A stretch of 64,000 bases of DNA from Enterobacterales bacterium (GCA_041556195.1 JBFFIY010000001.1:31877-95876); one strand, 5' to 3'; shown: positions 30,975-62,302, numbered from the stretch's first letter. A program made the numbers and translations. The notes: a model not told the origin generated them from the sequence alone.

Positions 30975-31059
30975 GCCGAAGTGGTGGAATTGGTAGACAC
31001 GCTAGCTTGAGGGGTTAGTGGCGTAAGCCGTGCCGGTTCAAGTCCGGCCTTCGGCACCA
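30975..31059 (+). tRNA. tRNA-Leu (anticodon GAG), CCA encoded
   Basis: Acceptor gccgaag/cttcggc. Anticodon stem ctagc/gttag with loop ttGAGgg. Long variable arm. T-arm gccgg-ttcaagt-ccggc. Same secG-tRNA-Leu adjacency as in E. coli. Confidence 0.93.
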
Positions 31060-44509: not shown

Positions 44510-45948
44510 TGTTTTTATCGCCGGATCTCACTCCGCTATCAGCGGAAATATTTATGCTGGTCATGGCCTGTGTGGTTATGATTGTTGATCTGTACTTTGC
44601 TGATGCTGAACACCGTCTTACTTATTGGATAACTCAATTATCATTAGTTGTTGCTATTTTTATATCTGTTGATCAGCTTTCAACAGAAACGGCAGTTCTT
44701 TTTGATGGCACTTATATCGTTGATTACTTGGCAGGGATCTTAAAGATAGGCATTTATGTATCGGCTATGATTGCCTTACTCTATGCTCGTGACTATATCG
44801 CTGAAAGGAAATTTTTGCGCGGTGAATACTACATGCTCGCATTGTTTGCCGTTTTGGGCATGATGGTAATGGTTTCGGCTCACAACTTATTGACTATCTA
44901 TCTGGGACTTGAACTATTGTCCCTGCCACTTTATGCCATGGTGGCGATGGAACGTAACAACGGCAATGCTGCAGAAGCAGCCATGAAATATTTTGTGATG
45001 GGAGCCATTGCTTCTGGTTTCCTACTTTATGGCATGTCTCTACTTTATGGTGCCACCCAAACCCTGGATATTGCTACTCTGTCACAAGCCGTTGCAAATG
45101 TTGGTGATAATCAATTAATGGTTAACTTCGCACTGATGTTTATTGTGGCAGGGCTGGCCTTTAAGTTAGGTGCTGTTCCTTTCCATATGTGGTTGCCAGA
45201 TGTTTATCATGGAGCGCCAACGGCAGTCACCCTGTTTATTGGTAGTGCACCAAAAATTGCCGCCTTTGGTATGGTTATTCGCCTGCTGGTTCAAGGTTTA
45301 GAGCCGCTGATAGAACAATGGCAAACACTGTTGATGATTATGGCAATTTTATCAATGGCAGTGGGTAACATAGTTGCCATTGCCCAGCTCAATTTAAAAA
45401 GAATGCTGGCCTATTCCACCATTGCTCATGTAGGCTATTTTCTAATGGGTATTATCTCTGGTACAGATGCAGGTTATGCCGCTTCAATGTATTACATCCT
45501 TATTTACGCATTGATGACACTGGCCAGTTTCGGAATGATTGTATTCTTATCAAGAGCAGGATTTGAATCAGACAATATTAGCGACTTTAAAGGATTAGCC
45601 AGGCGCAGTCCCTGGTATGCTGCAATGACACTGTTCACCATGATGTCACTCGCTGGTGTACCTCCATTCATTGGTTTCTGGCCTAAACTGGAAGTCATTA
45701 TGGCCGCAATCAACGGTGGTTTTTTGAATATGGCCATTTTCGCAGTAGTAATGTCACTTATAGGCGCATTTTATTACCTGAGAATAATCAAAGTTATGTA
45801 CTTTGAAGATGCAGAAGAAACCATGAAACCTATCGTAGTAGCATCCGATGTCCGTTTGTTAATGATAATGAATGGATTGGCGATGTTAGGCTTAGGGTTA
45901 GTACCTGGCTGGTTATTGCAATATTGTTTAACGGCATTTGGTGTTTAA
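44509..45948 (+). CDS. nuoN: NADH-quinone oxidoreductase subunit N
   Basis: GAVPFHMWLPDVYHGAPT, YSTIAHVGY. ATG 44509 (TAATG overlap, GGAG 10 nt upstream) is preferred to GTG 44500. Confidence 0.93.
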   Translation: MFLSPDLTPLSAEIFMLVMACVVMIVDLYFADAEHRLTYWITQLSLVVAIFISVDQLSTETAVLFDGTYIVDYLAGILKIGIYVSAMIALLYARDYIAERKFLRGEYYMLALFAVLGMMVMVSAHNLLTIYLGLELLSLPLYAMVAMERNNGNAAEAAMKYFVMGAIASGFLLYGMSLLYGATQTLDIATLSQAVANVGDNQLMVNFALMFIVAGLAFKLGAVPFHMWLPDVYHGAPTAVTLFIGSAPKIAAFGMVIRLLVQGLEPLIEQWQTLLMIMAILSMAVGNIVAIAQLNLKRMLAYSTIAHVGYFLMGIISGTDAGYAASMYYILIYALMTLASFGMIVFLSRAGFESDNISDFKGLARRSPWYAAMTLFTMMSLAGVPPFIGFWPKLEVIMAAINGGFLNMAIFAVVMSLIGAFYYLRIIKVMYFEDAEETMKPIVVASDVRLLMIMNGLAMLGLGLVPGWLLQYCLTAFGV

Positions 45949-45979
45949 ACTCAGAAAAACCATTTAAATTATAGAGTCA

Positions 45980-46007
45980 AAAAAACCGCATTTATTGCGG
46001 TTTTTTT
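45980..46007 (+). terminator. nuo operon terminator (copy 1 of a duplicated hairpin)
   Basis: aaaaaaccgca tttat tgcggttttttt. A near-identical sequence ccgcattcattgcggtttttta occurs at 59312-59335. Confidence 0.75.
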
Positions 46008-46103
46008 ATGCCAGTAAAAGTGTCTTAGTTTGTCATATATGTGCAGGGCTTTATTTTATACGATTACTTGAATATCTCCTAATGTATATATATACTTTTA
46101 GAT

Positions 46104-46376
46104 ATGTGGGAGATTTTAGAAAAGAAAACTGTAAAAAAAACACTTAGAAAAGCACCAAGGACGGTGCTTATCCGCTATGAGGCCTGGAAGAGAATTGTTG
46201 AACTAGAAGGTCCACAAGGGTTAAGGCTCATCAAAGGCTTTCACGATGAGTCACAGCAAGGTAACTGGAAGGGATTTCGGTCATCGCGCCCTGGGTTACA
46301 ATGGCGTGTGATTTATAAGGTAGCTAAGGGTGAATTACAAATATTTGTATTTGAGGTGAATCCGCATGAATATTAA
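46104..46376 (+). CDS. RelE/ParE-superfamily toxin (HigB-like gene order, toxin first)
   Basis: 90 aa. LKGFHDESQQGNWKGFRSSRPGLQWRVIYKV...IFVFEVNPHEY is typical of RelE-fold mRNA interferases. Overlaps the next gene by 11 nt. Confidence 0.7.
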   Translation: MWEILEKKTVKKTLRKAPRTVLIRYEAWKRIVELEGPQGLRLIKGFHDESQQGNWKGFRSSRPGLQWRVIYKVAKGELQIFVFEVNPHEY

Positions 46377-46623
46377 CGATTTTGAACCAGCAAAAGTTAA
46401 CGTTTCTATCACACCTGGCGAAATGTTAAAAACATTACGAGAACTTCAAGAGTTAACTCAAGATCAGTTAGCTCAGGCAACGGGTATTAGCCAGTCAAAC
46501 CTGTCTGGCATGGAAACTAACGCCAAAAGTATTGGTAGGGAACGCGCATTAATATTGGCCAAAGCACTCAAAGTACACCCTGCAGTGATACTTTTTCCTG
46601 ATTATCAGATCGAGGCGGCATGA
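46366..46623 (+). CDS. XRE-family HTH antitoxin (HigA-like)
   Basis: LTQDQLAQATGISQSNLSGMETN helix-turn-helix. 85 aa. Translationally overlapped with the toxin. Confidence 0.75.
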   Translation: MNINDFEPAKVNVSITPGEMLKTLRELQELTQDQLAQATGISQSNLSGMETNAKSIGRERALILAKALKVHPAVILFPDYQIEAA

Positions 46624-47234
46624 TGTCATTCTTTGTCTTCAACAAATATCTTGTCGGCACGGAAGTAGCTAACCTCAATTCGGAATAAGCCAGGCCGCTC
46701 AATACAGTGATTTTCGTACCTTTCTGCGTTAAGTTTATTCAAAATAGCCAGTTACCCCAAACATGGTAAGTTGGTAATATATTGATTTATATAGGTTGAA
46801 TTAAACTATGTCATGTCGAATTTTTAACTTTTTGTGTAGAAGAGAGCATAACTATTCAATAGATATTTAGGGTAAGTCTATGGCTGATCTCGGATTTTTG
46901 GATAATCGATAACTTAATGCAAGGTAGTTTGTTGAGTTGTCCAGAAGGTCGTTTATTGTACATTTGAGTTTTTAACGCTTATAGTGTTTATCCTCAGACT
47001 TCCTATTACAATGAGAGCACAAAGATTAAATTCCAATTTTTGATTTTGTTTGGAAAGGGAGTGTAATAGCAAGAACAGACAAACAAAACTGTTTGTTAGT
47101 CTTTAGTAAGTATAACTTGGGTTTGTGTTGGATTTACCAACAAGTCATTAGTTAATTGAGTTACACGAACTTATACTTTAAAGATATCTGGTTGAAGGGA
47201 TAGAGGAAAAAACAAGAATACTTCAAGGAAATTT

Positions 47235-47840
47235 ATGGAAATAACAGAAGATAAAAAAAATAACATTGAAATTGCTGAATTCATCAAACAAACAAAAAAT
47301 TTAGATTGGTCTAATCAGATTGATTCATTGAATACATTACATGATGAAACAATCAGATTGATTATGTATCAAATCGCTTACTATGATGGAATTCGCCAAA
47401 AGCATAAAAAATTGTCGAAGTGGCTACGGATAGGAATGCTCATTTTTGGCGCTTGTGGAATGATTTCACCCCTCGCTGAAGGAACACAGTTAAATTTTCT
47501 TTCCCCATATGGTTACATATTACTTGTAATTTCTGGCGTTTTTCTAACAGCAGACAAGCTGTTTGGTGGTACTTCAGGTCACATCAGATATTCAATGGTT
47601 TGGTTAAAACTTGAAAAACTTGTTGCATCAAGAAGTCTTAAATGGAATGAATTGATAAAAAACCATCAAAATTCCGCCGAAAAAAACCAGACAGAAAATA
47701 AAATGTTTCAGTTTATTGTTAAGACAATAGAAGAATTATACGCTCTTATTTTAAATGAAACATCCGAATGGGATCATGCCCTTACTTCGGCGATTGAGCA
47801 TGTTGGTAAACAGATAGGTTCTAAACAGAAGGAGATTTAG
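47235..47840 (+). CDS. SLATT-like two-TM effector/accessory protein (RdrD-like position)
   Basis: 201 aa: N-terminal helix, two adjacent TM helices (WLRIGMLIFGACGMISPLA; YGYILLVISGVFLTADKLFG), helical C-terminus. AAGGAA SD. Sits directly upstream of the ATPase/deaminase pair. Confidence 0.55.
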   Translation: MEITEDKKNNIEIAEFIKQTKNLDWSNQIDSLNTLHDETIRLIMYQIAYYDGIRQKHKKLSKWLRIGMLIFGACGMISPLAEGTQLNFLSPYGYILLVISGVFLTADKLFGGTSGHIRYSMVWLKLEKLVASRSLKWNELIKNHQNSAEKNQTENKMFQFIVKTIEELYALILNETSEWDHALTSAIEHVGKQIGSKQKEI

Positions 47841-48096
47841 TATCAGTTTTAATATTATTCTTTCTCTAATTTGGGCTCAAAAAGAGGCTTCAACAAAATA
47901 CTCGATAATTATTAATAATCTTTATCTGGTTCAGGATGACAACACTTTGAACCCCGCTGTTAAGAACAGAAATGGTTCTTTGTATTATCTGTATTGAGTT
48001 CAAAAATAAAAAAGATATAAATAAAAGATTTTTACTAGAAAGTAATGTTCAGCTACAAAAATACTTTAAATTTTATCGTATTAAAGGAGTTAGATT

Positions 48097-51000
48097 ATGG
48101 GAAATAATGCTAAAGGGCCTAAAATTGTTTTGGATCGCTCGCGTAGATCACGAGCATTTGGAGATGATGAACGATTATGGAAAGATGACCTCAAACGTTT
48201 GGTTGATATGATTAAGACCCATGTGGATAGTCTTGATAGTAAAGTCTCAGAAAAGAAAGATGAAATTACTGATGAAAAACCAACGTTAGCAATTGCCATT
48301 TTCAGCCCAGCAGGTTCCGGTAAGAGTAGTCTATTAAAAACTCTGGTTTACGAAGCTCAGAAAGAATTTAAAAATAAGCAAGAAAATTTAAAAAACGTCT
48401 CTTCACTCGACATTCTTCAACCTGCACGTTTTGGTGATAACGGTCAGTTGGTTTATGCAATGGTAGCAGCAGGTCTTAAAGCTCATAAAGAAAAACGCGG
48501 AGAAGATCTGGATTATGATGTTCTCACACCCCTTCTCAAGAAATACCGAGCTCTTTCAGACGATTTGCGTATCATTAGAGGAGATAAGATCTCTGATAAC
48601 CTGGAGTCGCATGAACTGACGACTGAAGTTGTTTTAAGACACACAAGTGGTCTGAATATCGGAAAAAAAATAGAAGCTTTTGTTAATGCCTTGGCCGATG
48701 ATTTAAATTCTGAAAGTAATAATAACTCAGTGGTTTTGCTACCAGTGGATGATTTGGATCTTGATCCTGAACAATTGATAAAGGGTCTGAGCCAGCTTCA
48801 AGCCTATTTGCGCCATCCACGATTAGTGCCCGTTTTTTGTTTTACTGATGGTTTGGCTGAGGATATTCTTTCAAACCATTATATTCAATCATTAAAGAGC
48901 GCAGATAGAAAACGCCGCAATAATGGACAAATGGAAGCAAGCGAGCAGTTGGCTATTCAATATTTATCCAAATGTTTTCCTGTTCGTACTCGCTTGAGAT
49001 TAGGGGCTGTTCCAGCGTCTTTACAAACGGGGCAACTCAAGAAGAACACTAGCGGGGAAGAGCAAGAACAAGTACTCCATCTATTATTGGCGGCCAGCTT
49101 TTTACTTTTTGGTGTGAGTGATCGTGAAGCTCGACACCCTGTTCGTGCTGTTCTTCGTCCATCAACAGTCCGCCGTCAGTTTCATATCATTGATTCGTTA
49201 GAACAAGCAGGAGTCAAGAAACTTATTTGTCAGCAGATAATAAAGTCATACGATTCAAACAGTCCATCTTATAATGAGCTCAAAAAATCTTTAAAGTTTA
49301 CACGAAAATATCCATGGGTAAATTATTTTGATCGGGCAGTTTGGGGGGTGTTAAATGTTCATCGAGACGTCATTCAGGAATACGGAATGCAAATGGAAGA
49401 TCTTTATAGCTGGTCCCCTTCAGCATTACGCCGTGTTCTTCTTGATGCCCTTCTTGAGCTACCAGATAAAATACAATTTGGACTCTGGCGTCGTTGGCGC
49501 AATATGACAGATAGTCGTCATAATCAGGTGATTTCTCTTTTAGCGGCTAATACTCACAGACCATGGTTAATAGGCGAACGACCCAGCGGAGAAGACTATA
49601 GCCAGCTCATGATTGCTAAACAGGAAAAAAACGGAGAGGATCCTAATAAAATTTATGGGACAATAGATGCTTATTTGGCATTGCTCTGGTTTGTGAATTT
49701 AACCTTGGGTTTTTATTTACCATTGAACCGTTCAGTTTTTCGGGAGTTGAGGGAATCAAAACACAACAAGGAACATTTGGGGGCAACAGGGTGGTCCCTC
49801 CATAACGCAGCCATCCAGGCAATTCAAACAGCAGATGAGGATCGCGAGTTTTTCCCCACAGGTATGCTGTTTCTTGACTCTATATCTTATGCGACGGCAT
49901 TGACAACAACACCCAGAATGAATGCTTGTTATATCTTAGATGGCGTTATTACAGAATGTGCTGAAGAAAAATTATCGCTTAAGAAAGCTAAGATTGAAAT
50001 TTTAAGTAGACGAACAAATGCATTGTTGGGAGAGTATAAAAAAAATCCTGCTGACGCGATAGCTTCTTTTACAAAAAAACTATCCTTGAAGACCAAGAAA
50101 ACAGATAAATGGCTTGAAGGTGTAATAGAAGAAGCACTTGAAGCATATAAAGTGGCTGCAGACTTTGAGATAAAAGGAAAATTAACTGAAGAAGAAGAAA
50201 AAACAGATAAAAAAGTTAATAAGAGTACTTCCTATAAGAAGATTGAAACACTTGTTGAGACTTATTTAAAAAAGCATGAGTACACCAAAGCTTATGGGTT
50301 TATAAAGGAAGAATTAGATGAGGATGGAGATATAACTAGTTCAGAAAAAGAAATAATCAAAAAAGAACTGATAGAACTTAAAACAAGAGTCACTAGCCTC
50401 AAAGCCACTGCAAGAATGGTTCACGATGATCAATTTTTATTAAGGGTATGGACATGTCATGGTTATAATCGAGGGCGGTTTTGGGCTGCGGTTTCATTAT
50501 GGCGAGGACTGGGTTTGATAGGAGAATTAATAGAGTCACATAGGAAGTGGCAATCTGAAAATTCTGATAAAAAAAAGAGCGATAAACAAGACGATTCTAC
50601 AACTGAAGGTTCAGATAAAAAAGCTACACCGGATGAAATAATGGTGAAAAACATCATTGGTATTTTACATTCCCACTCCTTGAAAGGTCTTGTTCCGGGT
50701 AAAGGTTTGAGCGAGCCGTCTAGTCGAAGAGACACTCTGGAGTTGGCATTTCCTCGTTGGAATACGAAAAATCAAAGAGATGCTATTTTGCGCCTTGCTG
50801 CCAGGTTAAAAAATTGGCTGGATAGTGCTTCAGAATTCAAAGTCGCTCCCTTACAACAAAATAGTCAGGAGAGTAAGTTGGACTGGGGTCAATGTTTTAT
50901 CCGCAGATTACAAGGTGAATATATTGCTGGATCGTTATGGCAGTGGTTGGATGTGGAGCATTTCGAATATCAGGGCGATCAATATAATAAAAATAGGCGT

Positions 51001-51906
51001 TCTCAATGGAATGCGGGGGTTGCCTTGACGAGTTGGATCCGAGTGCTTCAACGTTATTTTAAAGGAAACAATGAAATTCGTTGGTTGTTGGATACTTGCC
51101 CACTAACCAGTCCTTTTTTATCACGTTCAGGAAGCGGTTTTCTTCATGCTCAGCTAAGTGAAAAACCCTATATCAAAGTGTTGGGTTACGTTAAATCACT
51201 TATTGAGGATGATGCAAAAAAGGATGCTGCAAAAGAGGATGATGCAGAAAAAGATGATAAAAAAGAACCCGCACTCATAAGAAGTGCCCAACAATTTAGG
51301 AAAATGAATGTTGCCATATTAGAGCTTTGGAAAAAAGAATCTAGCTGGGGCTCACCTACAAATCCTACACGAGAAGAGGCTAATATTTTTGCGAAAGAGA
51401 TCATTAATAATTTGCTTGGTATTGGTAGTAAACCTGGAGCAGAAAAAGAAAGGCTGGAAAAAATTTTTGGTAGTCAGAACTATTTGAAATTTTTTGATGA
51501 AAAAATACAGAATAATGAAAAAAATCTAAAATATTTTATTAGATTGTTAGATATTGCTAAAAATGTAAAGCTTTCACTGAAAAAACACAATAAGAATACC
51601 GAAGAGTACAATGATAGCTTCAATGAGCATTATAAACGGAGTTTATTGGATTCTTTTAATCCAAGAGTTGTGGAATCAGGTATCAAAACAGATTCTGATA
51701 TGGGGGATCAAATAATTGATAGTGCCAATGATGTTCTTGACAGAAAATCTGTCTGTTTTGAACTGGCCAATATGATCCTACAGTATTTGAAGGTATCCAC
51801 ACATGCATCTGCAGCCAGTTTGTTTTATCAGATCCCTCGTGTGCGACGCAGTGATTTCTTTGATGAAGAAAAGAAGAAAGAAGCGGATAGTGAAACACAA
51901 CAATGA
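48097..51906 (+). CDS. rdrA: RdrA-like large P-loop ATPase (RADAR ATPase component), unusually long with K/E/D-rich insertions
   Basis: AAGGAG SD. Walker A FSPAGSGKSS (48304-48327). Walker B VVLLPVDDLD (48730-48759). 1269 aa. ATGA overlap with the downstream deaminase gene. Confidence 0.7.
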   Translation: MGNNAKGPKIVLDRSRRSRAFGDDERLWKDDLKRLVDMIKTHVDSLDSKVSEKKDEITDEKPTLAIAIFSPAGSGKSSLLKTLVYEAQKEFKNKQENLKNVSSLDILQPARFGDNGQLVYAMVAAGLKAHKEKRGEDLDYDVLTPLLKKYRALSDDLRIIRGDKISDNLESHELTTEVVLRHTSGLNIGKKIEAFVNALADDLNSESNNNSVVLLPVDDLDLDPEQLIKGLSQLQAYLRHPRLVPVFCFTDGLAEDILSNHYIQSLKSADRKRRNNGQMEASEQLAIQYLSKCFPVRTRLRLGAVPASLQTGQLKKNTSGEEQEQVLHLLLAASFLLFGVSDREARHPVRAVLRPSTVRRQFHIIDSLEQAGVKKLICQQIIKSYDSNSPSYNELKKSLKFTRKYPWVNYFDRAVWGVLNVHRDVIQEYGMQMEDLYSWSPSALRRVLLDALLELPDKIQFGLWRRWRNMTDSRHNQVISLLAANTHRPWLIGERPSGEDYSQLMIAKQEKNGEDPNKIYGTIDAYLALLWFVNLTLGFYLPLNRSVFRELRESKHNKEHLGATGWSLHNAAIQAIQTADEDREFFPTGMLFLDSISYATALTTTPRMNACYILDGVITECAEEKLSLKKAKIEILSRRTNALLGEYKKNPADAIASFTKKLSLKTKKTDKWLEGVIEEALEAYKVAADFEIKGKLTEEEEKTDKKVNKSTSYKKIETLVETYLKKHEYTKAYGFIKEELDEDGDITSSEKEIIKKELIELKTRVTSLKATARMVHDDQFLLRVWTCHGYNRGRFWAAVSLWRGLGLIGELIESHRKWQSENSDKKKSDKQDDSTTEGSDKKATPDEIMVKNIIGILHSHSLKGLVPGKGLSEPSSRRDTLELAFPRWNTKNQRDAILRLAARLKNWLDSASEFKVAPLQQNSQESKLDWGQCFIRRLQGEYIAGSLWQWLDVEHFEYQGDQYNKNRRSQWNAGVALTSWIRVLQRYFKGNNEIRWLLDTCPLTSPFLSRSGSGFLHAQLSEKPYIKVLGYVKSLIEDDAKKDAAKEDDAEKDDKKEPALIRSAQQFRKMNVAILELWKKESSWGSPTNPTREEANIFAKEIINNLLGIGSKPGAEKERLEKIFGSQNYLKFFDEKIQNNEKNLKYFIRLLDIAKNVKLSLKKHNKNTEEYNDSFNEHYKRSLLDSFNPRVVESGIKTDSDMGDQIIDSANDVLDRKSVCFELANMILQYLKVSTHASAASLFYQIPRVRRSDFFDEEKKKEADSETQQ

Positions 51907-54827
51907 GCCGTTCTGAATTACCCCTCAAAGTTTTGAGTTTATTAGGGCCTATTTTATCCTGGGTGGAAGGGAGTGCAGCAACAGCAGTGCCCGAAGCATG
52001 GAAGGATAAAATTAGCAATGACAATATTAGAAGCCTAGCTTTTCAGTCTGATAATCAGCTCATCAGTTCATTGCAACAACGAGCCTGGTTGTTGCATGAA
52101 TTACCGACTTACTCCCTGGATAATGTGGATGAAATTATGGCTCTGTCTGGTCGGCCTAAGCCTTCTATGCCCGACAGTGCTCTATGGCTGCCGCTAAATA
52201 AGCAACTCAATCCTCCAACTGATTATAATTTGATTAATGTATTTCACCAATTAGCTCAGCGCTATCTTTGTTGGAATGGCAGTGAGGTAGTGATTAAAGG
52301 AAAGCACGTAATAGAGCTGCATGCACTTGGTTTACGTATGCCGCTTTCATTTATGGTGCAACATTTTTATGCTTGCTCGGTTGCCAGTGGAGAAAAAAAA
52401 CTGGAAGATGTTTCTGCATTGATTGAATCCATTAATCTGCTTTCTTCAAATTCAAGATCTATAAGTAATGTTATCAATAAGGGGCTCAGTGAGGGGCATC
52501 TTCATCTCAATTCAATCCATGCAACTGAAAATTCCTGGGCGGATCACCTGCTACTACCGATAGACACTCGGCCTAAACAATTCAGCGTAGTCGATTGGCG
52601 TTTATTGCGTTTTGGACGTGCGGTGGCTCGGACTCTGGCACTGGCAACTACTCTGGTTCGTGCTAATATTGAGATTTCTGCACAGGATGGTATAGCAATC
52701 CATAATGCTTTGGACAACATGTATTGTGCGAAAGATTTATCTTCAATGGAGGAATTTGAGCGACAACATCAAATATATTTTGATAATATCGTTCAAGATC
52801 CAAAGTTTTTTGGTGACTTAAGCTCAGTTGATAATTTGCCTGATGGGGAGTTTTTTTCAGACGGTTTTTCCAGAAGAAAGGTTAAAGGTCAGCGTTTCGG
52901 GTTATTTTATTGGCTGGATCCCTGGCGTCAAACAAACTGGCCAGTTTTTAATGATAACTCGAAGTACCCTAAGCTAAATAATTCCAATAAACGTAGGCGC
53001 TTTATTTCTAATTTGCATTTAGTTAGCCATTTGGCACTTTTACAAACCCCGCCAATAACGCATACCTGTGACAACTCTCATGATCAACATGATACAAAAA
53101 ACCATGCTACAGGCCGTTTTTTACACCGTTCGTTGTTCAGATATCTGATTGCGCAAACTCATCACTGGCAACAGGCTGTACAACAGGGACGAACCACTGG
53201 TTTACGTAATTTCAAAGTCTATTTTGATAGTAATCAACGAAACCCAATAGAGCCTACTGTCAGAGAAAATGCCGAGGCAGTCTTTAAGCAGATCAGCCAT
53301 TGGCAAGGTCTTGATGTGCTGGAAGGCCGAGTTAGCCCTCCCAGGATTCCAGCCAAAGATCTGCTTCCCTGGATCCAGGAATTTGTCAGAAAAATCAAAA
53401 ATGGGAATAAAATAAAAAAATTTGGCTTAGTGATTCATTTTATCAAAGACGAGGAACCCAAAAGTCATCGAGACGATTCATCAATACGGCTGGCTAGGTA
53501 TGGTTTATTACGTAAGAGATATCGGAGTGAAGCATTCCATCTTTATCATATTTTAAAAAAATCTTCTGTAGAAAATCCATTTATTGTTGGTATAGATGCT
53601 GCCAATCTTGAACTTGCAACACCTCCCGAAGTGTTTGCTCCTATATTTCGTTTTTTACGTGATGAGCCCATAGAAATACTTCGGCCTCAACGATTTGATA
53701 GTAATTTTGGAGATAACAAAAAGCTTCATTTGGCGATTAAACATTTGGTGCGACACAGGCATCTTGGTATGACTTATCACGTTGGTGAAGAATTCAGACA
53801 TATTTTATCAGGACTCAGAGCAATCGATGAAGTTTTAGAGTTCCTTAATCCCCGATCTGGTGACAGGATTGGGCATGGGATAGCTTTAGGATTAGAGCCA
53901 AAAGTATGGTTAGAGCAAACAGGATATCAGGCACTGATGCCTAAGCAGGAGTGGCTCGATACCCTCGTCTGGATTTTCCATTATCTGGGTTCGGGTGACG
54001 AACAGGTTAAAAGCTTAAATATAGAATATGAAATTGAGCGCCTTGCACGGGAGATTTATCAGCATGGAGGCGAGGATTCAAAAAACTCCATTAACCCTCA
54101 TTTATTATGGAATGCCTGGCTTCTTCGGCAACTTGATCCTGGATCTATTTACCTGGACGAAAAACTCAATAGTTTCCAATTTCAACCTTTAACTGGAGTA
54201 GATGCCGAAGCCTGGCGGTGGAACCGTATTACAAACAAAATAGTTAATGAAATTAATGAAAAAGTAGGAAATAATCCACCTTCTAAGCTTTTGAGCCAGT
54301 ACTGGTGTGATGCTAAAGTACGAGCCGCAGGTAACAAATTATGTCTGATTGATATGGAAGATGAGTCTGAGAATTGGCTTGAAATATGCCGAAAAGCACA
54401 AAAAATAATGCAAAATCGAGTGATTAAGCGTCAAATGGTTGTAGAAGTAAATCCATCATCTAACTTTAGTATCGGATCGATGAGTCGTTTTACAGAACAT
54501 CCTATTTTTAATATGGTATTTGATCACGAGGGAAATTGGCAACGCCGTTTGCGAGTTACTATCAACACAGATAACCCTGGAACTGCCAATACAAGTCTAT
54601 CCCATGAATATTATTTGCTGGGAGAGGCTCTCATGGGCATGGGACGACCTGAAAGCGAGGTCCTTGAATGGCTTGAATGGTTACGTCAATGTGGAGAAGA
54701 GAGCTCGTTTGTTCGCCACTTGCCAGAAATTGAGCACTGGGCTATGAAGACTGTTGTTGCTGAAATCAGAAAAACATTTCCAGGAAAGGATGGTATCTTT
54801 AAATGGTATAAATCAGAAAATAAATAA
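51903..54827 (+). CDS. rdrB: RdrB-like divergent adenosine deaminase (RADAR effector)
   Basis: All ADA-fold motifs in the canonical order: GHLHLN (HxH, 52497-52505), YHVGEE (53778-53789), DRIGHG (53862-53879), VNPSSN (54447-54464), NTDNPG (54564-54581). 974 aa. Confidence 0.75.
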   Translation: MSRSELPLKVLSLLGPILSWVEGSAATAVPEAWKDKISNDNIRSLAFQSDNQLISSLQQRAWLLHELPTYSLDNVDEIMALSGRPKPSMPDSALWLPLNKQLNPPTDYNLINVFHQLAQRYLCWNGSEVVIKGKHVIELHALGLRMPLSFMVQHFYACSVASGEKKLEDVSALIESINLLSSNSRSISNVINKGLSEGHLHLNSIHATENSWADHLLLPIDTRPKQFSVVDWRLLRFGRAVARTLALATTLVRANIEISAQDGIAIHNALDNMYCAKDLSSMEEFERQHQIYFDNIVQDPKFFGDLSSVDNLPDGEFFSDGFSRRKVKGQRFGLFYWLDPWRQTNWPVFNDNSKYPKLNNSNKRRRFISNLHLVSHLALLQTPPITHTCDNSHDQHDTKNHATGRFLHRSLFRYLIAQTHHWQQAVQQGRTTGLRNFKVYFDSNQRNPIEPTVRENAEAVFKQISHWQGLDVLEGRVSPPRIPAKDLLPWIQEFVRKIKNGNKIKKFGLVIHFIKDEEPKSHRDDSSIRLARYGLLRKRYRSEAFHLYHILKKSSVENPFIVGIDAANLELATPPEVFAPIFRFLRDEPIEILRPQRFDSNFGDNKKLHLAIKHLVRHRHLGMTYHVGEEFRHILSGLRAIDEVLEFLNPRSGDRIGHGIALGLEPKVWLEQTGYQALMPKQEWLDTLVWIFHYLGSGDEQVKSLNIEYEIERLAREIYQHGGEDSKNSINPHLLWNAWLLRQLDPGSIYLDEKLNSFQFQPLTGVDAEAWRWNRITNKIVNEINEKVGNNPPSKLLSQYWCDAKVRAAGNKLCLIDMEDESENWLEICRKAQKIMQNRVIKRQMVVEVNPSSNFSIGSMSRFTEHPIFNMVFDHEGNWQRRLRVTINTDNPGTANTSLSHEYYLLGEALMGMGRPESEVLEWLEWLRQCGEESSFVRHLPEIEHWAMKTVVAEIRKTFPGKDGIFKWYKSENK

Positions 54828-54911
54828 GATGGTAAGACTGCACAATATTTTTGGGTATCTATATATCTATAGTTTATATAGTGCTTATTTCAAAATATCA
54901 TCAAAATAACT

Positions 54912-55199
54912 ACAAGCAACATTTAATGAATTGATACGTCATTAACATGCTTAGTAGCAATTAACCCCCATTTATTGGTTTTAAGGAAAAAACATGAATC
55001 CAGATCTTACAAAAATAGGACGTTTTGATTGTTCATTTATAATAGTTATGATCAGGGATTTTTCCTGGTATTACTAGCAGTTGTGTTGTTTGAACTGGGC
55101 CTGCGATTTGTCATAGTTCTCTATGAATTTAACTACCCTCAGCAAAAAGAGACAGCCCAAATAGCCGAAGATCTGGCAGTAGATGTAGTTAATATTATG
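54912..55199 (+). repeat. Direct repeat, copy 1 (~288 bp): diverged duplicate of the promoter and 5' end of the 59429 gene
   Basis: Aligns with 59348-59635 at roughly 85-90% identity by manual alignment, including a 50-nt perfect core ttgtttgaactgggcctgcgatttgtcatagttctctatgaatttaacta. Confidence 0.9.
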
Positions 55200-55334
55200 G
55201 CTAATAAAAAATCCAATTCAAGTCCGGATTCAACTATAACAACACCAGCGATGCGCATTGGATTGGCGGACCAAGTTTTTGACGGAAGTGGTATATTAAA
55301 CTTCAACCTATATAAGAAAATTTTAAGTGTTTAA
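54994..55334 (+). pseudogene. Frameshifted, 3'-truncated fragment of the HAMP-domain gene (paralogous to 59429-60652)
   Basis: ATG 54994 gives MNPDLTKIGRFDCSFIIVMIRDFSWYY*. A T5 run versus T6 in the intact copy shifts the frame. The homologous frame continues as track ORF 55029-55334, then diverges after ..VDVVNIM. Confidence 0.8.
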
Positions 55335-55644
55335 TAAAAATATAAGAGGGATTCAAATGAATACTGGGGATTATAAAAAATACATCAAGGGAATCTTTGA
55401 TAATGTCTTTGTTTATAGCTTAATTGACACATTTTTCACCATACTTTATGCCAATTCATAATTGGGGGGGTAATATTTCTGTATACATTTGCAATTGGTG
55501 ATAGCTCGTTAATACGGGAAAAGCACATCTTAGTATCAGTTCAAATTTTTCTTGGTATTTATTTTTTTGTGATTTCAATTACTTCTCTTAACGCTTATAT
55601 AAAGTTTAAAAGGAACTTTGGAACCTCAAAGCAGGAATGAACCA

Positions 55645-58221
55645 ATGTTTGAACATATAAAGCAGGCACTGGAAAGAGAGGCTACTAGAGAAAGTCAGCA
55701 GGTAATCGACTCGATGAAAAACAGTGACTATCTCGCGATTTCCCATCACATTTCTTCTTTAATAATCGCTATTGTAGCTTTTTGTTTGATCGTGACAGCT
55801 GTGAGCATTTCAAGCCAAAAGGGTAGTGGCTCAGTCATCGGTTATGGATTGCTGCTAGTTGCTGCATTATTAGTTCTATTTCATGAAGCTAATAAGCGAA
55901 GAGTTAGTTATATAAACAAATATGCTTATCTAATTATCAGGATTAAGTGTTTTTGGATAAGACATTGGTATGCTGATTATTTAGCTAAGTATTTTTGGGT
56001 TAGTTTCGCTTTACTAATAATTATATTGGGAGCATTGCTACTGACACATGTTACAGGACAGAACGGGTGGGTTTTGCCAGAAGTTTATCAAGGTGAAAAA
56101 TTTTCTTCGTCAGTAAATATGGTCATAACTACCGCATCTGGGCTGCTCGCGGCTCAAATAGCTCTGTTTAGTTTCATGATGCAGCAAGTGCTAAGTAAAT
56201 ATTCTGGAGTTGTCGCTCAAACCGTTGCTAGCCATAGAGTATTTAAATTGCTAGCTCTTTTTCCTGCCTTAGGGTTATTAATTCCATTTGTGCTGCATAA
56301 CTTTGGTGCTCCTAAGTCGATTGAAAGTCAAATACTGCCAGTCATTGGTTTCATGTTGTTCTTAGGCCTTTTATTAACAGTCATGGTAGCCAAATCAGGA
56401 TTGAGTGAAAATCTTACCATTAGATACTTTGGTGTAGCCTCGTCAAATAAGCTTGTTAAAGCAATACCAACTCCTCTTAAAATGAATTCAAATTTTGCAA
56501 AGCGTTTGTGGAGGACTTTACATTATTTAGGATTAGATTTTAGAAATAAAGACCGTTTTCAAATTATCAATGTACCAGCAAACGGATCAAATATAACTAT
56601 GGAGTCGTTAAGTGCTGCATTAGGTGTAGCCAATAAGGCAGTAGTAGAAGGACAGCATGATGTCTTCGTTTCCAGTTTGATATCAATAGAAATAATTATG
56701 AAGGCCTATGCTGTTAGGCGAAAATTATATTGCAGCAGTGAAGATGAAGTGTTTATCTACCTGAATTATCAATTTGCCGCGCTAATAGAGTTGACGGCAA
56801 AAATTCCTAATCAATATTTAATATCCAATTTAACTAGTTCAATTGGCAAAACTGCAAAATTAACGTATTGCGTTGGTAACATACCAGAAGAGTTAGTTGA
56901 GGAGCACCATCATGAGAATGCTAATAACTTTGCAACTGCATTATGGATGGGGTTACTAGTCCAAAGCTTTGAACATACGCACACTCTGACCAGGAGCACA
57001 GCTGCACACGCCTCATTAAGACAAATGTCCGAAATAGCAAGCACATCTATTGCTAACAAAGATTCAGACTTAATAACCATTACTTACCTACCTTCAGTAA
57101 AGAAAGTATTTGCACAGTGCGTTGTAAGAATAGCGGACGCATATCATAAAGATCTAGCTGGGCAATGCCTAATAAATTTAATGTCGAATTTGATGAATAT
57201 TACGTTTTATCGAGATTCACTAAGGGGAACACATCAAGACTCTTTTGAAGAGGTATTAAACCATATCACTGAACTATCAAACCTTTATTTAACAGCCGAC
57301 TCAATGGGATCAATAACTCTAAATGACCCATTAAATATAGTCCTTAGCAAAACAGCCGAAAACCAATGTTGCATTCAAGAAGTATTTTTCATGATTGCTA
57401 ATAAAAAAATCAGCAATACTCACTCCTATCGAGTTGCCGTATCCGATATGGAAAAAATTGTTGATGAACTAGCGACTATGGGATGGTTTGCCGTAAATGC
57501 TAATGTATATACATCGGCATATTATTTAGAGGCTCTTTTTGAAATCCTTTATATAGTAACTAGAGGACTACCTAGTAAATTCGAAGAGTTTGATCAACTT
57601 GAAGTGCAGCAAAGAGCCCCGTTCGGGCTACCAGAAAATTCAATATCTACAGAACAAAGGCTGATTGAACATATATGCAATAAGTTAAATGAATTGGCTA
57701 CACTTTTCTATCAGTCACAACGAATGACTATAGATTGGCAACAGTCAGTGTATTCATCAATTGGTATATTGATATTGCGCTATGCCGAATGCCAAGAAGA
57801 ATTTATAAAAAGTAAAATTTCAGAAACAGTTCACATCATATATTCGCTTGTAAGATCTGACATTGAGTCCGGAAATCGGACTCAATACGATAGTGAAAAA
57901 TACCTTCAATTAGCAGCAGCCTGGATGAAATATTATGAAATAGATAATGACCTGACTGTCGAGATTGAAAATTTTCTAGCTAATAACAGAGGATACTATA
58001 GAGGTTATGGCGGCTCGCGGGAAAGGTATGGCTTATTCGGTTACCCAACGTTACAGCACTATGATTTTTACCTATATCCCCTAAAAAACATACGCCATCC
58101 ACAGATAATGTCTGAAGAGCATTGGCAAAATTTTAGAGATTTCGGTAATCGATTAGTAAACGATGATGTTCTTTTGCCGTTTGCTAATAACCTTAGGGAA
58201 ATGGCCGAAAATTTAGCTTAA
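55645..58221 (+). CDS. Large polytopic membrane protein of unknown function (about 6 N-terminal TM helices + ~570-aa helical soluble domain)
   Basis: ATG 55645 (AGGA upstream) is preferred to the track's TTG at 55618. TM helices include LIIAIVAFCLIVTAVSI, VIGYGLLLVAALLVLF, MVITTASGLLAAQIALFSFMM and ILPVIGFMLFLGLLLTVMVA. No catalytic motif recognised. Confidence 0.6.
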   Translation: MFEHIKQALEREATRESQQVIDSMKNSDYLAISHHISSLIIAIVAFCLIVTAVSISSQKGSGSVIGYGLLLVAALLVLFHEANKRRVSYINKYAYLIIRIKCFWIRHWYADYLAKYFWVSFALLIIILGALLLTHVTGQNGWVLPEVYQGEKFSSSVNMVITTASGLLAAQIALFSFMMQQVLSKYSGVVAQTVASHRVFKLLALFPALGLLIPFVLHNFGAPKSIESQILPVIGFMLFLGLLLTVMVAKSGLSENLTIRYFGVASSNKLVKAIPTPLKMNSNFAKRLWRTLHYLGLDFRNKDRFQIINVPANGSNITMESLSAALGVANKAVVEGQHDVFVSSLISIEIIMKAYAVRRKLYCSSEDEVFIYLNYQFAALIELTAKIPNQYLISNLTSSIGKTAKLTYCVGNIPEELVEEHHHENANNFATALWMGLLVQSFEHTHTLTRSTAAHASLRQMSEIASTSIANKDSDLITITYLPSVKKVFAQCVVRIADAYHKDLAGQCLINLMSNLMNITFYRDSLRGTHQDSFEEVLNHITELSNLYLTADSMGSITLNDPLNIVLSKTAENQCCIQEVFFMIANKKISNTHSYRVAVSDMEKIVDELATMGWFAVNANVYTSAYYLEALFEILYIVTRGLPSKFEEFDQLEVQQRAPFGLPENSISTEQRLIEHICNKLNELATLFYQSQRMTIDWQQSVYSSIGILILRYAECQEEFIKSKISETVHIIYSLVRSDIESGNRTQYDSEKYLQLAAAWMKYYEIDNDLTVEIENFLANNRGYYRGYGGSRERYGLFGYPTLQHYDFYLYPLKNIRHPQIMSEEHWQNFRDFGNRLVNDDVLLPFANNLREMAENLA

Positions 58222-58276
58222 CCTACTAAAAAATGAATACTAAATTATACGGCTAGCGAAAGAAGAGTGGATTTTT

Positions 58277-59167
58277 ATGGAATTAGCGACGATTAACAAA
58301 GAATTGGAAATGATCAATAGTGAACTTTCTGAAAGAGACGTACCTATTCATGCGCGTCCAATCCATGCAATTATGGAATTTGGTAAAAAACACAAATTAT
58401 CTCTCCCTATTGTTTCTACTGGAAGATCTTCTGCTGATAATAATTACCCAATTGAAAATGAATATATTACTGATGCCATTCATGCTTGGTATGAAAACAT
58501 GTATTCAGATTCATTAAAAATTGCGCCTGATATTGGAAAAACGCTTGTTCTTGTAAATGGCGACCCAATGGCTATGAGACTTCCATTGATCTATGGACAG
58601 TGTGAGATACAGTGGGATATTATTAAAACGGGGATTACAGGTGCAAAAGGATTTAATAAGGGGCCCAATATTCTAAATGTGATAGATGTTATTGATGGGC
58701 TTACTATTACAATGGCTAAAAATATTAGCCATGATGCAGCAAGAAACATTGTGCATTGGTTTCTTCAATCCTACGAAACACATAACTTTATTACCAATTT
58801 AGACCAGGCATTAGTCAAACAGGCTCTAACAGACTTAAAAGACGCTGTTTCGCATATAACTAGCCAACTTGCTAATTATGGGCAAGCTCGCTGGTCAACC
58901 CTTCAAGCCTGTGAAAAGTTGATGAAAGCCTACATGGTAGATAAAGAAATTCCTTATAGAAACGGTCACTATCTGGAAAAAGTTGCAAAAAATGCTGAAA
59001 TTGATTCTAAAGAAATGCTGTCTTTGTTGCCAGATATTCAATGTCCTGCAAGTGTTAGATATGGAGAAGTAAAACCGACCAAATTAGAGGCAATTAAGGC
59101 ATACCAATCCACAATGGTTTTCTTATCTTACCTGGTAAAAATGTGGCCGGTTAAAGGTTGTACGTAG
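58277..59167 (+). CDS. Unknown protein with a HEPN-like C-terminal domain
   Basis: The C-terminal ~70 aa follow the classic HEPN layout: DLKDA..., QACEKLMKAYM (58904-), GHYLEKVA (58964-), VRYGE (59054-59068). The N-terminal ~190 aa are unrecognised. Confidence 0.5.
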   Translation: MELATINKELEMINSELSERDVPIHARPIHAIMEFGKKHKLSLPIVSTGRSSADNNYPIENEYITDAIHAWYENMYSDSLKIAPDIGKTLVLVNGDPMAMRLPLIYGQCEIQWDIIKTGITGAKGFNKGPNILNVIDVIDGLTITMAKNISHDAARNIVHWFLQSYETHNFITNLDQALVKQALTDLKDAVSHITSQLANYGQARWSTLQACEKLMKAYMVDKEIPYRNGHYLEKVAKNAEIDSKEMLSLLPDIQCPASVRYGEVKPTKLEAIKAYQSTMVFLSYLVKMWPVKGCT

Positions 59168-59310
59168 TAAGTGTTTGTATTTATATAACTAATTGAATGA
59201 ATTTTGATTTGAAATAGTGCTACTTCAAGTAAATATTCGCAATAAAATCAATAAGTTTATAAATTGAAAAAGCCGACGCATAATGCATCAGCTCCAAGTT
59301 CAGTAAATAG

Positions 59311-59336
59311 CCCGCATTCATTGCGGTTTTTTATGT
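59311..59336 (+). terminator. Terminator hairpin, duplicate of the nuoN terminator
   Basis: cccgca ttcat tgcgg + T6. 59312-59339 matches 45986-46013 with 2 mismatches and 1 indel by eye. Confidence 0.7.
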
Positions 59337-59347
59337 CCAAAAAACCA

Positions 59348-59635
59348 ACAAGCAACATTTAATGAGTTGATACGTCAGTAACATGTTTCGTAGTAATTAA
59401 CACCATTTTATGCTTATAAGGAAAGAACATGGCGCCAGATTTTACAAAAATAGGACGTTTTGACCGTTCATTTATAGTAGTTATGATCAGGGATTTTTTC
59501 CTGGTCTTATTGGCTGTCGTATTGTTTGAACTGGGCCTGCGATTTGTCATAGTTCTCTATGAATTTAACTATCCTCAGCAAAAAGAAACTGCACAGGTGG
59601 CCGAAGACCTGGCTGTTGATGTAGTTAACATTATG
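59348..59635 (+). repeat. Direct repeat, copy 2 (native promoter and 5' end of the HAMP gene)
   Basis: Partner of 54912-55199. Confidence 0.9.
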
Positions 59636-60652
59636 CGTAATAAGGGCGGACCGGTAGCCTCTAGTACATTTTACCCAATATTGAAAAAAAATCACGAAGC
59701 TATAGGTTATGAAGTTTCCATAGAACCGTCGGACGAAACCGTATCATCCATAGAAAAAATATTTAGTTTTACCCCAAGAGGTATTCCAGCCGAATGGTCT
59801 ATAGGCAAATTTCATGAAGAAACCGTTGAAATACGTGCGGATAAATTTTGTTTATCTTGTCACATTGATGCTAAATTAGGTGCTGTTTTAGGAAAAATAA
59901 AAGTTAGAAGTTACCTAAGCCATCATCTTGAGAGTTGGTGGGCCGAAGTGGGTTTAACCGCTGTATTAGGTTTGGGTAAAATATTATTTCATACCACCAT
60001 TTTATTCTTTTTATTAAAAGTTAGAATGGAACCCATGTTATCTTTACGTTCAGTGGTGGCATCCCTGGCAAAAGCAGGGGCAGATCTACATCATCGTGCT
60101 ACATTAAGATCTGAAGATGAGTTTTCCGAACTTGCCCGTGACTTAAATCACTTCCTTGATCGTTTGTGTTTAATATTGGAAGATGTTGGTAACGTATTAG
60201 AAAAAATTACAGTGTTAAATTTACGATTAACTCAGGTTAACTCTCAAATAGAAAATAAATTTGAAGTTATTCAGGGGTTATCTCAACAAGCAAACAAAGT
60301 GATGTTTGAAGGAAACACGCGTTTACCTCTGTTATCGTTTGAGTGGAAAAATTCAATGCAATTGGCGTTAACTATGTTAAAAAATTCAATAGATGATCCT
60401 GAAAAACTTGTAGAATTTGATATTAAAATGGAACAAATCTGGCAGCAGTTTGACGCAACAGCAGCTCAACTGCAAAATTTGAATCAGAGCCACAATAAAG
60501 CGAGTGAAGGGTTAACTCATATGAATTCAGAGTTACATGATTTTGAGCATTACCTGACAGAAATGAGTCATCTTGAAGAAAAAATGGAAAATATTTCTGA
60601 GCAGGGACAAAAATTAATCAATAGGTTAACTGGAAAATCAATTGAGTCATAA
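59429..60652 (+). CDS. Membrane protein with a CxxCH-containing periplasmic loop, HAMP domain and C-terminal coiled coil
   Basis: TM1 FFLVLLAVVLFELGLRFVIVL. FCLSCHIDA (CxxCH). TM2 LTAVLGLGKILFHTTILFFLL. HAMP-like MEPMLSLRSVV...EDEFSELARDLNHFLDRL. Confidence 0.65.
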   Translation: MAPDFTKIGRFDRSFIVVMIRDFFLVLLAVVLFELGLRFVIVLYEFNYPQQKETAQVAEDLAVDVVNIMRNKGGPVASSTFYPILKKNHEAIGYEVSIEPSDETVSSIEKIFSFTPRGIPAEWSIGKFHEETVEIRADKFCLSCHIDAKLGAVLGKIKVRSYLSHHLESWWAEVGLTAVLGLGKILFHTTILFFLLKVRMEPMLSLRSVVASLAKAGADLHHRATLRSEDEFSELARDLNHFLDRLCLILEDVGNVLEKITVLNLRLTQVNSQIENKFEVIQGLSQQANKVMFEGNTRLPLLSFEWKNSMQLALTMLKNSIDDPEKLVEFDIKMEQIWQQFDATAAQLQNLNQSHNKASEGLTHMNSELHDFEHYLTEMSHLEEKMENISEQGQKLINRLTGKSIES

Positions 60653-61989: not shown

Positions 61990-62302
61990 GTGAATCAAAC
62001 TTTAAAAACGTTCTTAACCATATACTTGATAATTTCTTATCCTCTAACCCCTTATCAATTGAGTGCGGCTAAACAGCCTGATATTTTATTGATGAGGGAG
62101 CGAGCCGAGAAGATTGATGAACTCACTCAACTGAGAGTGAAAAAATTACTGCCATCCCTGATGAAAAAATCTGATATAGACATGTGGCTGTTAATTAGTC
62201 GAGAGTATAATGCTAGAAGAAGATGCTGTTTTTGATAAAACAGGCGTATGGTATTTAGATGGCAGACAAACAGAATTTTTACTTATTAAACCAACTGAAT
62301 AA
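61990..62302 (+). pseudogene. Remnant of an M24-family (Xaa-Pro/aminopeptidase P-like) peptidase with a large internal deletion
   Basis: The N-terminal ~74 codons (signal peptide ...LMKKSDIDMWLLISREYN) are joined out of frame to a C-terminal tail (..EDAVFDKTGVWYLDGRQTEFLLIKPTE*). About 340 codons expected between them are missing. Confidence 0.6.

Follow-up and report, generated by a model that had tools for sequence, protein, structure and literature searches.

Introduction

Defence hotspots, in which several defence modules lie between housekeeping-type genes, are known from Pseudomonas aeruginosa (core defence hotspots, cDHS; PMC10250203), Escherichia coli (PMC10121019) and Acinetobacter (PMC11723918). 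How defence islands that lie between core genes and carry no mobility gene arrive there is an open question. Here we analyse a locus that gives a sequence-level answer for one case. It lies in a stretch of 64,000 nucleotides (nt) from an Enterobacterales bacterium (GCA_041556195.1, JBFFIY010000001.1:31877-95876), referred to below as the window, in which 13.3 kb of accessory DNA separates nuoN, with which the nuo operon ends, from a gene for a HAMP-domain membrane protein, here termed the sensor. An original prediction, made from the sequence alone, read this interval as one recombinase-less defence hotspot. The present analysis does not bear this out: the interval probably consists of two unrelated foreign pieces, a RADAR/toxin-antitoxin island and the truncated right part of a transposon, the latter making up the right-hand 4.1 kb. 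The interest of the locus stems mostly from the mechanism that this relic exposes, and less from the relic itself.

The locus resembles the described hotspots in its several defence modules, in at least two independent acquisitions at the site, and in the co-transfer of flanking core DNA with the cargo. Hotspots are defined by variation in occupancy and cargo from strain to strain. The present locus differs from them in that the nearest relatives lack the flanking synteny, and in that half of the content appears to have come by a transposon that targets a terminator, not 'the locus'.

Tn7-like elements with defence cargo (PMC8649781) are comparable to the transposon family described below in that they land at safe sites behind conserved genes and carry variable defence cargo. 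They differ in that the family found here has a single-protein machinery, and in that its target is any terminator loop and not one attachment site. Group IIC introns home to intrinsic terminator stem-loops downstream of genes, which provide safe landing sites. These introns differ in being retroelements (ribozyme plus reverse transcriptase) that insert after the hairpin, with neither inverted repeats nor target duplication. A full-text search of the literature returned no account of a terminator-targeting, DnaQ-fused transposon, which does not prove that none exists.

Organisation of the locus

The main features of the interval and its flanks are listed here in order; names of the form L095 denote related loci and contigs.

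44509-45948, plus strand: nuoN, last gene of the nuo operon and left core flank (from the list of open reading frames, ORFs; the exact protein is a singleton cluster, best relative 79% identical).
45979-46007, plus strand: term1, the intact, insertion-free intrinsic terminator of nuoN, A7-CCG-CATTTATTG-CGG-T7 (read directly).
46014-54901, plus strand: island A, 8,888 bp, between the T-run of term1 (plus TATGCCA) and the sensor upstream region (junctions set against the uninterrupted copy at 59324-59356).
54902-55207, plus strand: H1, in which the region upstream of the sensor gene and its codons 1-71 occur a second time in diverged form (86% identical to H2 over 306 nt).
55197-55334, plus strand: remnant of a putative transposase gene, last ~46 codons, in frame with H1 (aligned to the C-terminus of the L103 protein and to a 41-residue ORF of L095).
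55357-55640, plus strand: small membrane-protein gene (93 residues in relatives), disrupted (tblastn in two frames; DNA alignment to L088, L095 and L103).
55645-58221, plus strand: cargo protein of 858 residues, with a multi-pass membrane region at the N-terminus and an all-alpha solenoid after it.
58277-59167, plus strand: 296-residue protein with a C-terminal HEPN domain (Pfam HEPN, 9.9e-05, 22.9 bits, cut-off 22).
59269-59295, minus strand: subterminal hairpin at the right end of the transposon, its T-run on the minus strand (terminator scan; alignment of 15 element ends).
59291-59314, plus strand: terminal inverted repeat at the right end, GCTCCAAGTTCAGTAAATAGCCCG (no differences from L095 or from either end of the L097-L109 elements).
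59315-59332, plus strand: right copy of the 9-bp target CATTCATTG (a nuoN-type terminator loop), then CGG and T6, forming the right half of term2, the terminator split by the transposon (by analogy with complete elements).
59338-59643, plus strand: H2, the corresponding upstream region and codons 1-71, leading without a break into the intact sensor gene (sequence comparison).
59429-60652, plus strand: the sensor, right core flank (Pfam HAMP, 1e-06; 542 homologues; best non-self matches 76% and 67% identical).

The terminator term1 is followed by TATGCCA and then, from 46014, by new sequence, GTAAAAGTG. At the other end of the interval, the loop, right stem and T-run of term2 (59315-59332) run unbroken into ATGTCCA-AAAAACCAACAAGCAAC and the sensor gene; the terminator copy at 59305-59332 is 86% identical to term1. 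The sequence CAAAATAACTACAAGCAAC reappears at 54902, and the left insertion therefore measures 8,888 bp (46014-54901) in a spacer of about 7-10 nt. On re-reading, the original prediction was correct in its coordinates, in the sharp left junction and in this resumption of CAAAATAACTACAAGCAAC. The duplication of H1 and H2, however, extends over 306 nt, and the interval therefore divides into island A (46014-54901) and island B (55208-59314), with the pseudogenised sensor fragment H1 between them.

At the right edge of island B, the segment 59291-59314 matches a 24-nt transposon terminal inverted repeat without a mismatch, although no ends of an insertion sequence (IS) had been seen there before. 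It is followed directly by CATTCATTG-CGG-T6, which is a nuoN-type terminator loop and right stem, and the right edge is therefore a genuine transposition junction. In L095, the closest homologous locus (73% DNA identity), homology halts exactly at the end of the repeat in both sequences. The right junction is confirmed by an independent assembly, in which the Logan contig L120 is identical over 56557-59551 and ends inside a 50-nt repeat discussed below. No second copy of the repeat was found in the window, either with up to 3 mismatches (one match; zero in shuffled sequences) or by nhmmer, which gave the right copy an E value of 2.2e-14. With a single repeat and a single target 9-mer, island B is therefore a truncated relic and not an element.

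Island B also retains the end of a gene. When a profile of the ~830-residue protein family described below was run on the six-frame translation of the window, the remnant at 55197-55334 was the sole match (E = 9.8e-07). It reads MANKKSN...TTPAMRIGLADQVFDGSGILNFNLYKKILSV up to its stop codon, and the C-terminus of the L103 protein reads MTNKKSN...TTPAVRIGLASQNFTVSDILSFNLFKKILNT. Searches for hidden recombinases were otherwise negative: no ORF matched a recombinase family in Pfam, NCBIfam, PADLOC or PHROGs, and a six-frame Pfam scan of every gap in the interval was empty. The earlier statement that the interval has no integrase or transposase thus holds for intact genes and fails for the gene tail. 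A missed recombinase or IS, which the original prediction had named as a finding that would speak against it, is partly present in the form of this tail and the right repeat. An Rfam search for RNA elements gave chance-level matches only.

The transposon family and its targets

The 20-nt core of the repeat was found by a metagenome scan in 13 stretches, and in 5 of these it forms inverted pairs 0.9-6.5 kb apart. Two further inverted pairs span 11.5 kb on long contigs (MAAB01001195.1 and Ga0209395_1000021). A search of viral contigs for the inverted repeat gave no match. All 15 distinct ends share 24-25 identical nt, CGGGCTATTTACTGAACTTGGAGC, after which come a hairpin, whose sequence varies, and a T-run. 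The elements span 0.9-11.5 kb, and their cargo varies. The intact counterpart of island B is found in L103 (4476-10168), where a repeat, genes for proteins of 823, 93 and 855 residues, and a second repeat follow one another.

Every complete copy is flanked by a 9-bp direct repeat, which is centred on the loop of an intrinsic terminator hairpin and takes in bases of the adjoining stem. Such duplications occur in seven independent insertions, and include GCCCAAGGC after purF, CTATTACAG, GTCAATTGA, ACTTTATGT after fur, CTGCAATAG and CAACATTGC. The fur site reads AAAAAAACCG[ACTTTATGT]CGGTTTTTT and the purF site GGGT[GCCCAAGGC]ACCC, with the duplicated bases in brackets. The terminator sites include one after a TonB-dependent receptor gene. 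The rule extends to a subfamily (L110) whose ~830-residue protein is 53% identical: here the repeat is CGGGCTATTGAGTCAACTCGGAGC and the duplication, CTAATAAAT, again lies in a terminator loop. The hairpins just inside the repeats would restore termination for the flanking genes, so that insertion would cost little.

The target is a structural class that is found after thousands of genes. If this reading is true, defence genes could land at the terminator of any gene, and among the islands that seem 'recombinase-less' some would be such elements in a decayed state. Inverted pairs of CGGGCTATT-N10-GGAGC provide a simple search key for cataloguing the cargo.

Besides the genes seen in island B, the cargo includes Dsr1-like, DUF4238/SEC-C and PEP-CTERM proteins, metabolic genes, or a lone small ORF without a transposase. 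One copy (L107, 306-3212) carries a Dsr1-like protein of 968 residues (PADLOC, 1e-23), and another (L098, 5753-8134) a DUF4238/SEC-C protein of 793 residues. The two 11.5-kb copies contain apparent regulator and sugar-metabolism genes, as judged from N-terminal sequence alone. The smallest, a non-autonomous copy of 0.96 kb in the fur terminator (L108, 242-1201), has two perfect repeats and a 175-residue ORF without a family match, and no transposase.

The putative transposase

In every full-size element, a protein of about 825-840 residues is encoded just inside one of the repeats. Residues 8-172 form an exonuclease of the DnaQ/DEDDh type (Pfam, 4.5e-24; Pol III epsilon 1j53, 4.9e-34). The remainder has conserved cysteine pairs, and its D473, D600 and E741, candidates for a D/D/E triad, are invariant or almost invariant. 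AlphaFold2 (AF2) generates a model with a pLDDT of 87 and a pTM of 0.73, which Foldseek matches, besides exonuclease structures, to the IS256-family transposase ISCth4 (6xgx, 6xg8 and 6xgw; E values of 8e-5 to 1e-3 over 390-470 columns). It is an RNase-H-like core that resembles ISCth4 by fold. At NCBI the protein is labelled 'exonuclease domain-containing protein', and relatives that lack the exonuclease are labelled 'transposase-like' at JGI. Since annotation pipelines label the ~830-residue protein an exonuclease, the mobile element goes unrecognised.

IS256-family elements produce target duplications of 8-9 bp and have inverted repeats of about 24-40 nt. The 9-bp duplication seen here fits IS256-like chemistry, and it and the 24-nt repeats agree with these values. 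The family shares with ISCth4 the C-terminal fold of ~450 residues, the ~24-nt repeats and the length of the duplication. It differs in sequence, in its N-terminal DnaQ/DEDDh exonuclease and zinc-ribbon modules, in its cargo of up to ~9 kb, in its insertion into terminator loops and in the terminator-like hairpins inside both ends.

There is precedent for the pairing of a 3'-5' exonuclease with an integrase-like enzyme in the Cas2-DEDDh fusions that appear in the list of PDB matches, and further precedent in the Dada transposons of eukaryotes (PMC3706591). The latter have DDE transposases distantly related to IS256/MuDR, specific structured-RNA targets and short duplications, in all of which they resemble the present family. 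They differ in being eukaryotic, in having a DEDDy exonuclease that lies within the catalytic domain, in their duplications of 6-7 bp, and in targeting small nuclear RNA and transfer RNA (tRNA) genes.

Judging from the structural model, the ~830-residue protein would be the transposase of the element, with an IS256-like DDE chemistry directed at terminator hairpins. We tentatively suggest that island B has been left behind by a DDE transposon of a family not described before, in which a DnaQ exonuclease, zinc ribbons and an IS256-like core would together recognise terminator hairpins and insert in the loop.

The cargo of island B

The small membrane-protein gene has a 2-nt insertion near 55451, and measures 284 nt against 282 nt in L088, L095 and L103. 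This is either decay of the module or an assembly error. The following protein of 858 residues has no family match in Pfam, NCBIfam, PADLOC or PHROGs. An attempt to assign a function from its fold was abandoned, as the AF2 model has a pLDDT of 68 and matches only designed or TPR-like repeat proteins. The family is rare, with 8 proteins found by a word index and 87 representatives among 1.84 billion. Its members are always preceded by the small gene, and their neighbours include serine recombinases, integrases, ArdA, GmrSD and BrxC-like genes. The same pair, of 93 and 855 residues, forms the cargo of the intact element in L103.

The HEPN gene (~950 bp, 58225-59175) lies between the 858-residue gene and the subterminal hairpin, and is absent from L103 and L095. 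The cargo is predicted to defend against phage, and the rare membrane module of 93 and 858 residues is a candidate new defence system. Island B may owe the transcription of its genes to the sensor upstream sequence duplicated in H1.

In Salinimonas iocasae (CP039852; L087, 12731-13612) a 59%-identical homologue of the 858-residue protein occurs with its small partner beside a weak tyrosine-recombinase-like gene (Phage_integrase, 8e-4). A cluster of TerB, BrxC-like and DEAD-helicase genes is nearby, and the transposon repeat is absent. The module therefore also moves on other vehicles.

In L095, the closest relative of island B, a similar loss is seen in the region of 1-63 (minus strand) and 187-312: only ~41 C-terminal codons of the putative transposase gene are left, here beside an IS3-type OrfA gene (HTH_Tnp_1, E = 0.0011). 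An element of this type has thus been immobilised a second time, independently.

The H1/H2 duplication and the left junction of island B

H1 is disabled by a 1-nt deletion in a T-run. Otherwise its coding differences from H2 are those of functional genes: 15 of the changed codons are synonymous against 6 that are non-synonymous, and 17 of the 26 differences fall at third positions. The loops of term1 and term2 (CATTTATTG against CATTCATTG) and the spacers differ too. In the coding part the divergence is biased towards synonymous change, and each copy therefore belonged to a functional gene in a lineage of its own before the two came together. The two pairs, term1 with H1 and term2 with H2, indicate that at least two lineages shared the nuoN-sensor adjacency.

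The junction of H1 with the transposase-gene tail, at 55197-55207, falls in a sequence ATGnnnAATAA that is common to the sensor gene (ATGCGTAATAAG in H2, at codons 69-72) and the putative transposase gene (ATGACAAATAAA in L103). By its sequence, it reads as a typical microhomology junction.

Within the 86%-identical copies, a run of 50 nt is identical (55086-55135 and 59522-59571). It may be a tract left by gene conversion or by a crossover, and it is long enough for RecA to excise island B precisely.

Proposed origin of the tandem islands

On the basis of these observations, we consider it likely that two independently acquired islands were placed in tandem by recombination between related lineages. 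In one lineage, a cargo-carrying transposon would have entered the loop of the nuoN terminator, bringing the genes for the 93- and 858-residue proteins and the HEPN gene. In the other, the 8.9-kb island A would have come to lie between an intact terminator and the sensor gene. The two would then have been merged by one homologous crossover in the conserved flank and one illegitimate event at ATGnnnAATAA, which would have duplicated ~350 bp (H1/H2 and the terminator) and removed the left repeat together with ~94% of the putative transposase gene. This would explain why island B has no recombinase, since the illegitimate event removed it, and why the island cannot move, both the left repeat and most of the gene having been lost. 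In its present state island B would be immobile, and the frameshift in the 93-residue gene suggests that it is probably decaying.

Homology-facilitated illegitimate recombination is reportedly found in naturally transformable bacteria, and is said to have been described for Acinetobacter by de Vries and Wackernagel in 2002. The merger proposed here is alike in having a homologous anchor, a short and imperfect microhomology junction, and foreign DNA added beside the anchor. It differs in that it is reconstructed from a single historical product.

Several points weigh against this account and against the identification of the transposon. The mobility of the family and its target rule are suggested by comparative anatomy only. 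The fold match of the putative transposase to ISCth4 has low TM-scores, of 0.35-0.40, for what is a multi-domain match, and no match was found at the level of sequence to Pfam Transposase_mut or to transposases in the PDB, the only Pfam hit at E <= 0.01 being RNase_T. The simplest model does not account in advance for the run of 50 identical nt inside H1 and H2 (p ~ 0.014). The junction of H1 with the gene tail is present in one NCBI assembly only, and no Logan contig spans it. The two-island model leaves the insertion mechanism of island A unexplained. Finally, the donor, the recipient and the order of events are inferred.

Four other explanations deserve to be weighed. That all 13.3 kb were swapped solely by homologous recombination in the flanks, as in a recombinase-less hotspot with no mobile element, we regard as unlikely. 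No intact recombinase is present, the junctions of island A are clean and free of repeats, the divergence of H1 and H2 shows that core flank DNA travelled with the cargo, and defence hotspots flanked by core genes are documented in other species (PMC10250203, PMC11723918). For island B, however, this explanation is contradicted by the perfect transposon repeat, the terminator-loop 9-mer and the tail of the transposase gene; in addition, nuoN-sensor synteny is absent in the nearest relatives. A Campbell-type integration is similarly improbable. In this scheme a circle containing the gene tail, the cargo, the right repeat, half a terminator and ~300 nt of the sensor 5' region, closed at ATGnnnAATAA, would have been integrated by RecA beside island A. 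The geometry yields the observed product, and a crossover at the 50-nt run would leave exactly the pattern seen, with diverged sequence on both sides. It nevertheless needs circle formation as an extra step compared with one-step homology-facilitated illegitimate recombination; the 50-nt run could equally well reflect later gene conversion between linked repeats; and the halves of H1 and H2 may come from either lineage.

The tandem arrangement might also be an artefact, in which two co-existing strains, one with island A and one with the transposon, were fused in a chimeric contig. The source is seemingly a single 98-kb contig without close relatives, and the Logan graph branches at the 50-nt repeat, as it also would for two strains. 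But the critical junction shares merely 8 of 11 nt, which is far below any assembler k-mer and too short for an assembler to join; 72 nt of H1-specific sequence lie between the 50-nt repeat and the junction; and the right junction is reproduced in the independent assembly. We therefore consider an artefact highly improbable. Also highly improbable is a duplication of H1 and the second terminator within the genome, followed by neutral decay. Although H1 is a pseudogene, with its 1-nt deletion and its end at codon 71, the preponderance of third-position differences (17 of 26) and of synonymous changes (15 of 21 codons) is the mark of purifying selection and not of decay, and the boundaries of the duplication coincide with the transposon end and with the breakpoint in the transposase gene. 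A merger of two lineages thus remains our preferred reading.

Relatives of the locus

At 90% identity, every window protein that was checked, including nuoM and nuoN, forms a singleton in a collection of about 15 billion sequences. The nearest relatives of nuoN are 79% and 72% identical, and those of the sensor 76% and 67%. The adjacency of nuoN and the sensor gene is not kept in the nearest relatives of either gene, so that the synteny expected of a hotspot is not seen there. A metagenome scan with a 32-mer conserved between H1 and H2 returned nothing, and when the exact proteins were looked up, the matches were confined to short Logan contigs from the same sample. Repeated use of the site is indicated solely by internal evidence, namely the two lineages with different cargo.

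Two further suggestions were rejected. Breaks in Logan contigs at 46714 and 47016 had suggested strain variation; the assembly is simply fragmentary. A 107-residue ORF after nuoN in L001 was considered as a RAYT transposase and is unsupported by Pfam.

The interval is enriched in defence genes, namely RADAR (RdrA, RdrB and SLATT) and a type II toxin-antitoxin pair, together with the HEPN protein and the module of 93 and 858 residues. The original prediction of accessory, defence-rich DNA straight after the nuoN terminator was sound in this respect, and the toxin-antitoxin pair, the RADAR genes and the uncharacterised cassette that it listed were all recovered. Profiles of G+C content and codon usage, which it had proposed across the region, were run and do not set islands A or B apart from the core genes as foreign.

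Island A

The genes of island A are as follows.

46104-46376, plus strand: RelE/StbE-family toxin, 90 residues (NCBIfam TIGR02385, 1.9e-07, 31.5 bits, cut-off 27.9).
46366-46623, plus strand: HTH (HigA-like) antitoxin, 85 residues (Pfam HTH_3, 2.8e-12; NCBIfam HigA, 6.3e-07, below cut-off).
47235-47840, plus strand: SLATT_2 membrane protein (NCBIfam SLATT_2, 3.8e-20, 72 bits, cut-off 40; Pfam, 1.1e-09).
48097-51906, plus strand: RdrA-like ATPase, 1,269 residues (NCBIfam RdrA, 9.8e-18, 64 bits, cut-off 600; PADLOC RdrA, 2.4e-10).
51903-54827, plus strand: RdrB adenosine deaminase, 974 residues (NCBIfam RdrB, 1e-58, 200 bits, cut-off 800; PADLOC, 7e-34).

The clean insertion of ~8.9 kb that had been proposed holds for island A. 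No mobility gene was detected in it, its ends show neither an inverted repeat nor a target duplication, and its gaps, including one of 610 bp, contain no detectable gene remnant by Pfam. The segment 46044-46060 loosely resembles the transposon repeat, but nhmmer gave this no support and it was discarded.

The toxin gene comes first and the antitoxin gene overlaps it by 11 nt, as in type II pairs of the RelE/HigA type. The RdrA-like and RdrB genes are adjacent, with an overlap of 4 nt, which is the arrangement of the RADAR gene pair. In the RdrA-like ATPase, the resemblance to RdrA is confined to the first ~330 residues, with SPAGSGKSS as the Walker A motif. The other ~900 residues match no RdrA profile or PDB entry, and the protein as a whole has no PDB match by sequence. 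Within its gene, 15-nt tandem repeats (51205-51264) encode a low-complexity stretch rich in K, D, E and A. The RdrB protein matches RdrB structures in the PDB (8fnv and 8fnw, 1.8e-25). Its metal-binding and catalytic motifs (HxH, HVGE and DNPG) are kept in comparison with 8fnv, as seen in GHLHLN/THQHLN, YHVGEEF/YHVGEDF and NTDNPG/GSDDPG.

Neither protein reaches the curated NCBIfam equivalog thresholds (64 against 600 bits for RdrA, 200 against 800 for RdrB). The RADAR system is therefore a distant variant. SLATT-associated RADAR is a recognised subtype, with SLATT as an accessory gene, according to Gao et al. (2020) as summarised in PMC7699616; structures are described in PMC9994260 (8fnv and 8fnw). 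The order of SLATT, ATPase and deaminase is the same here. The module differs in its ATPase, with 1,269 residues of which ~900 are unmatched, and in that both proteins fall under the cut-offs. It is a distant member of this known subtype. By analogy, RADAR and the toxin-antitoxin pair probably act as their families do.

Other features of the window

The tRNA-Leu gene that had been placed upstream of the locus is found at 30975-31059.

An orphan immunity-protein gene of the Imm22/DUF4284 family (62336-62788; Pfam, 1.5e-28) lies downstream of a kynureninase gene. It is preceded by an 81-residue ORF without a family match (61990-62235), and this region may be the relic of a polymorphic-toxin locus. 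At 14035-18221 there are two adjacent PAS-GGDEF-EAL paralogues, whose G+C content of 0.32-0.33 is markedly below that of their neighbours.

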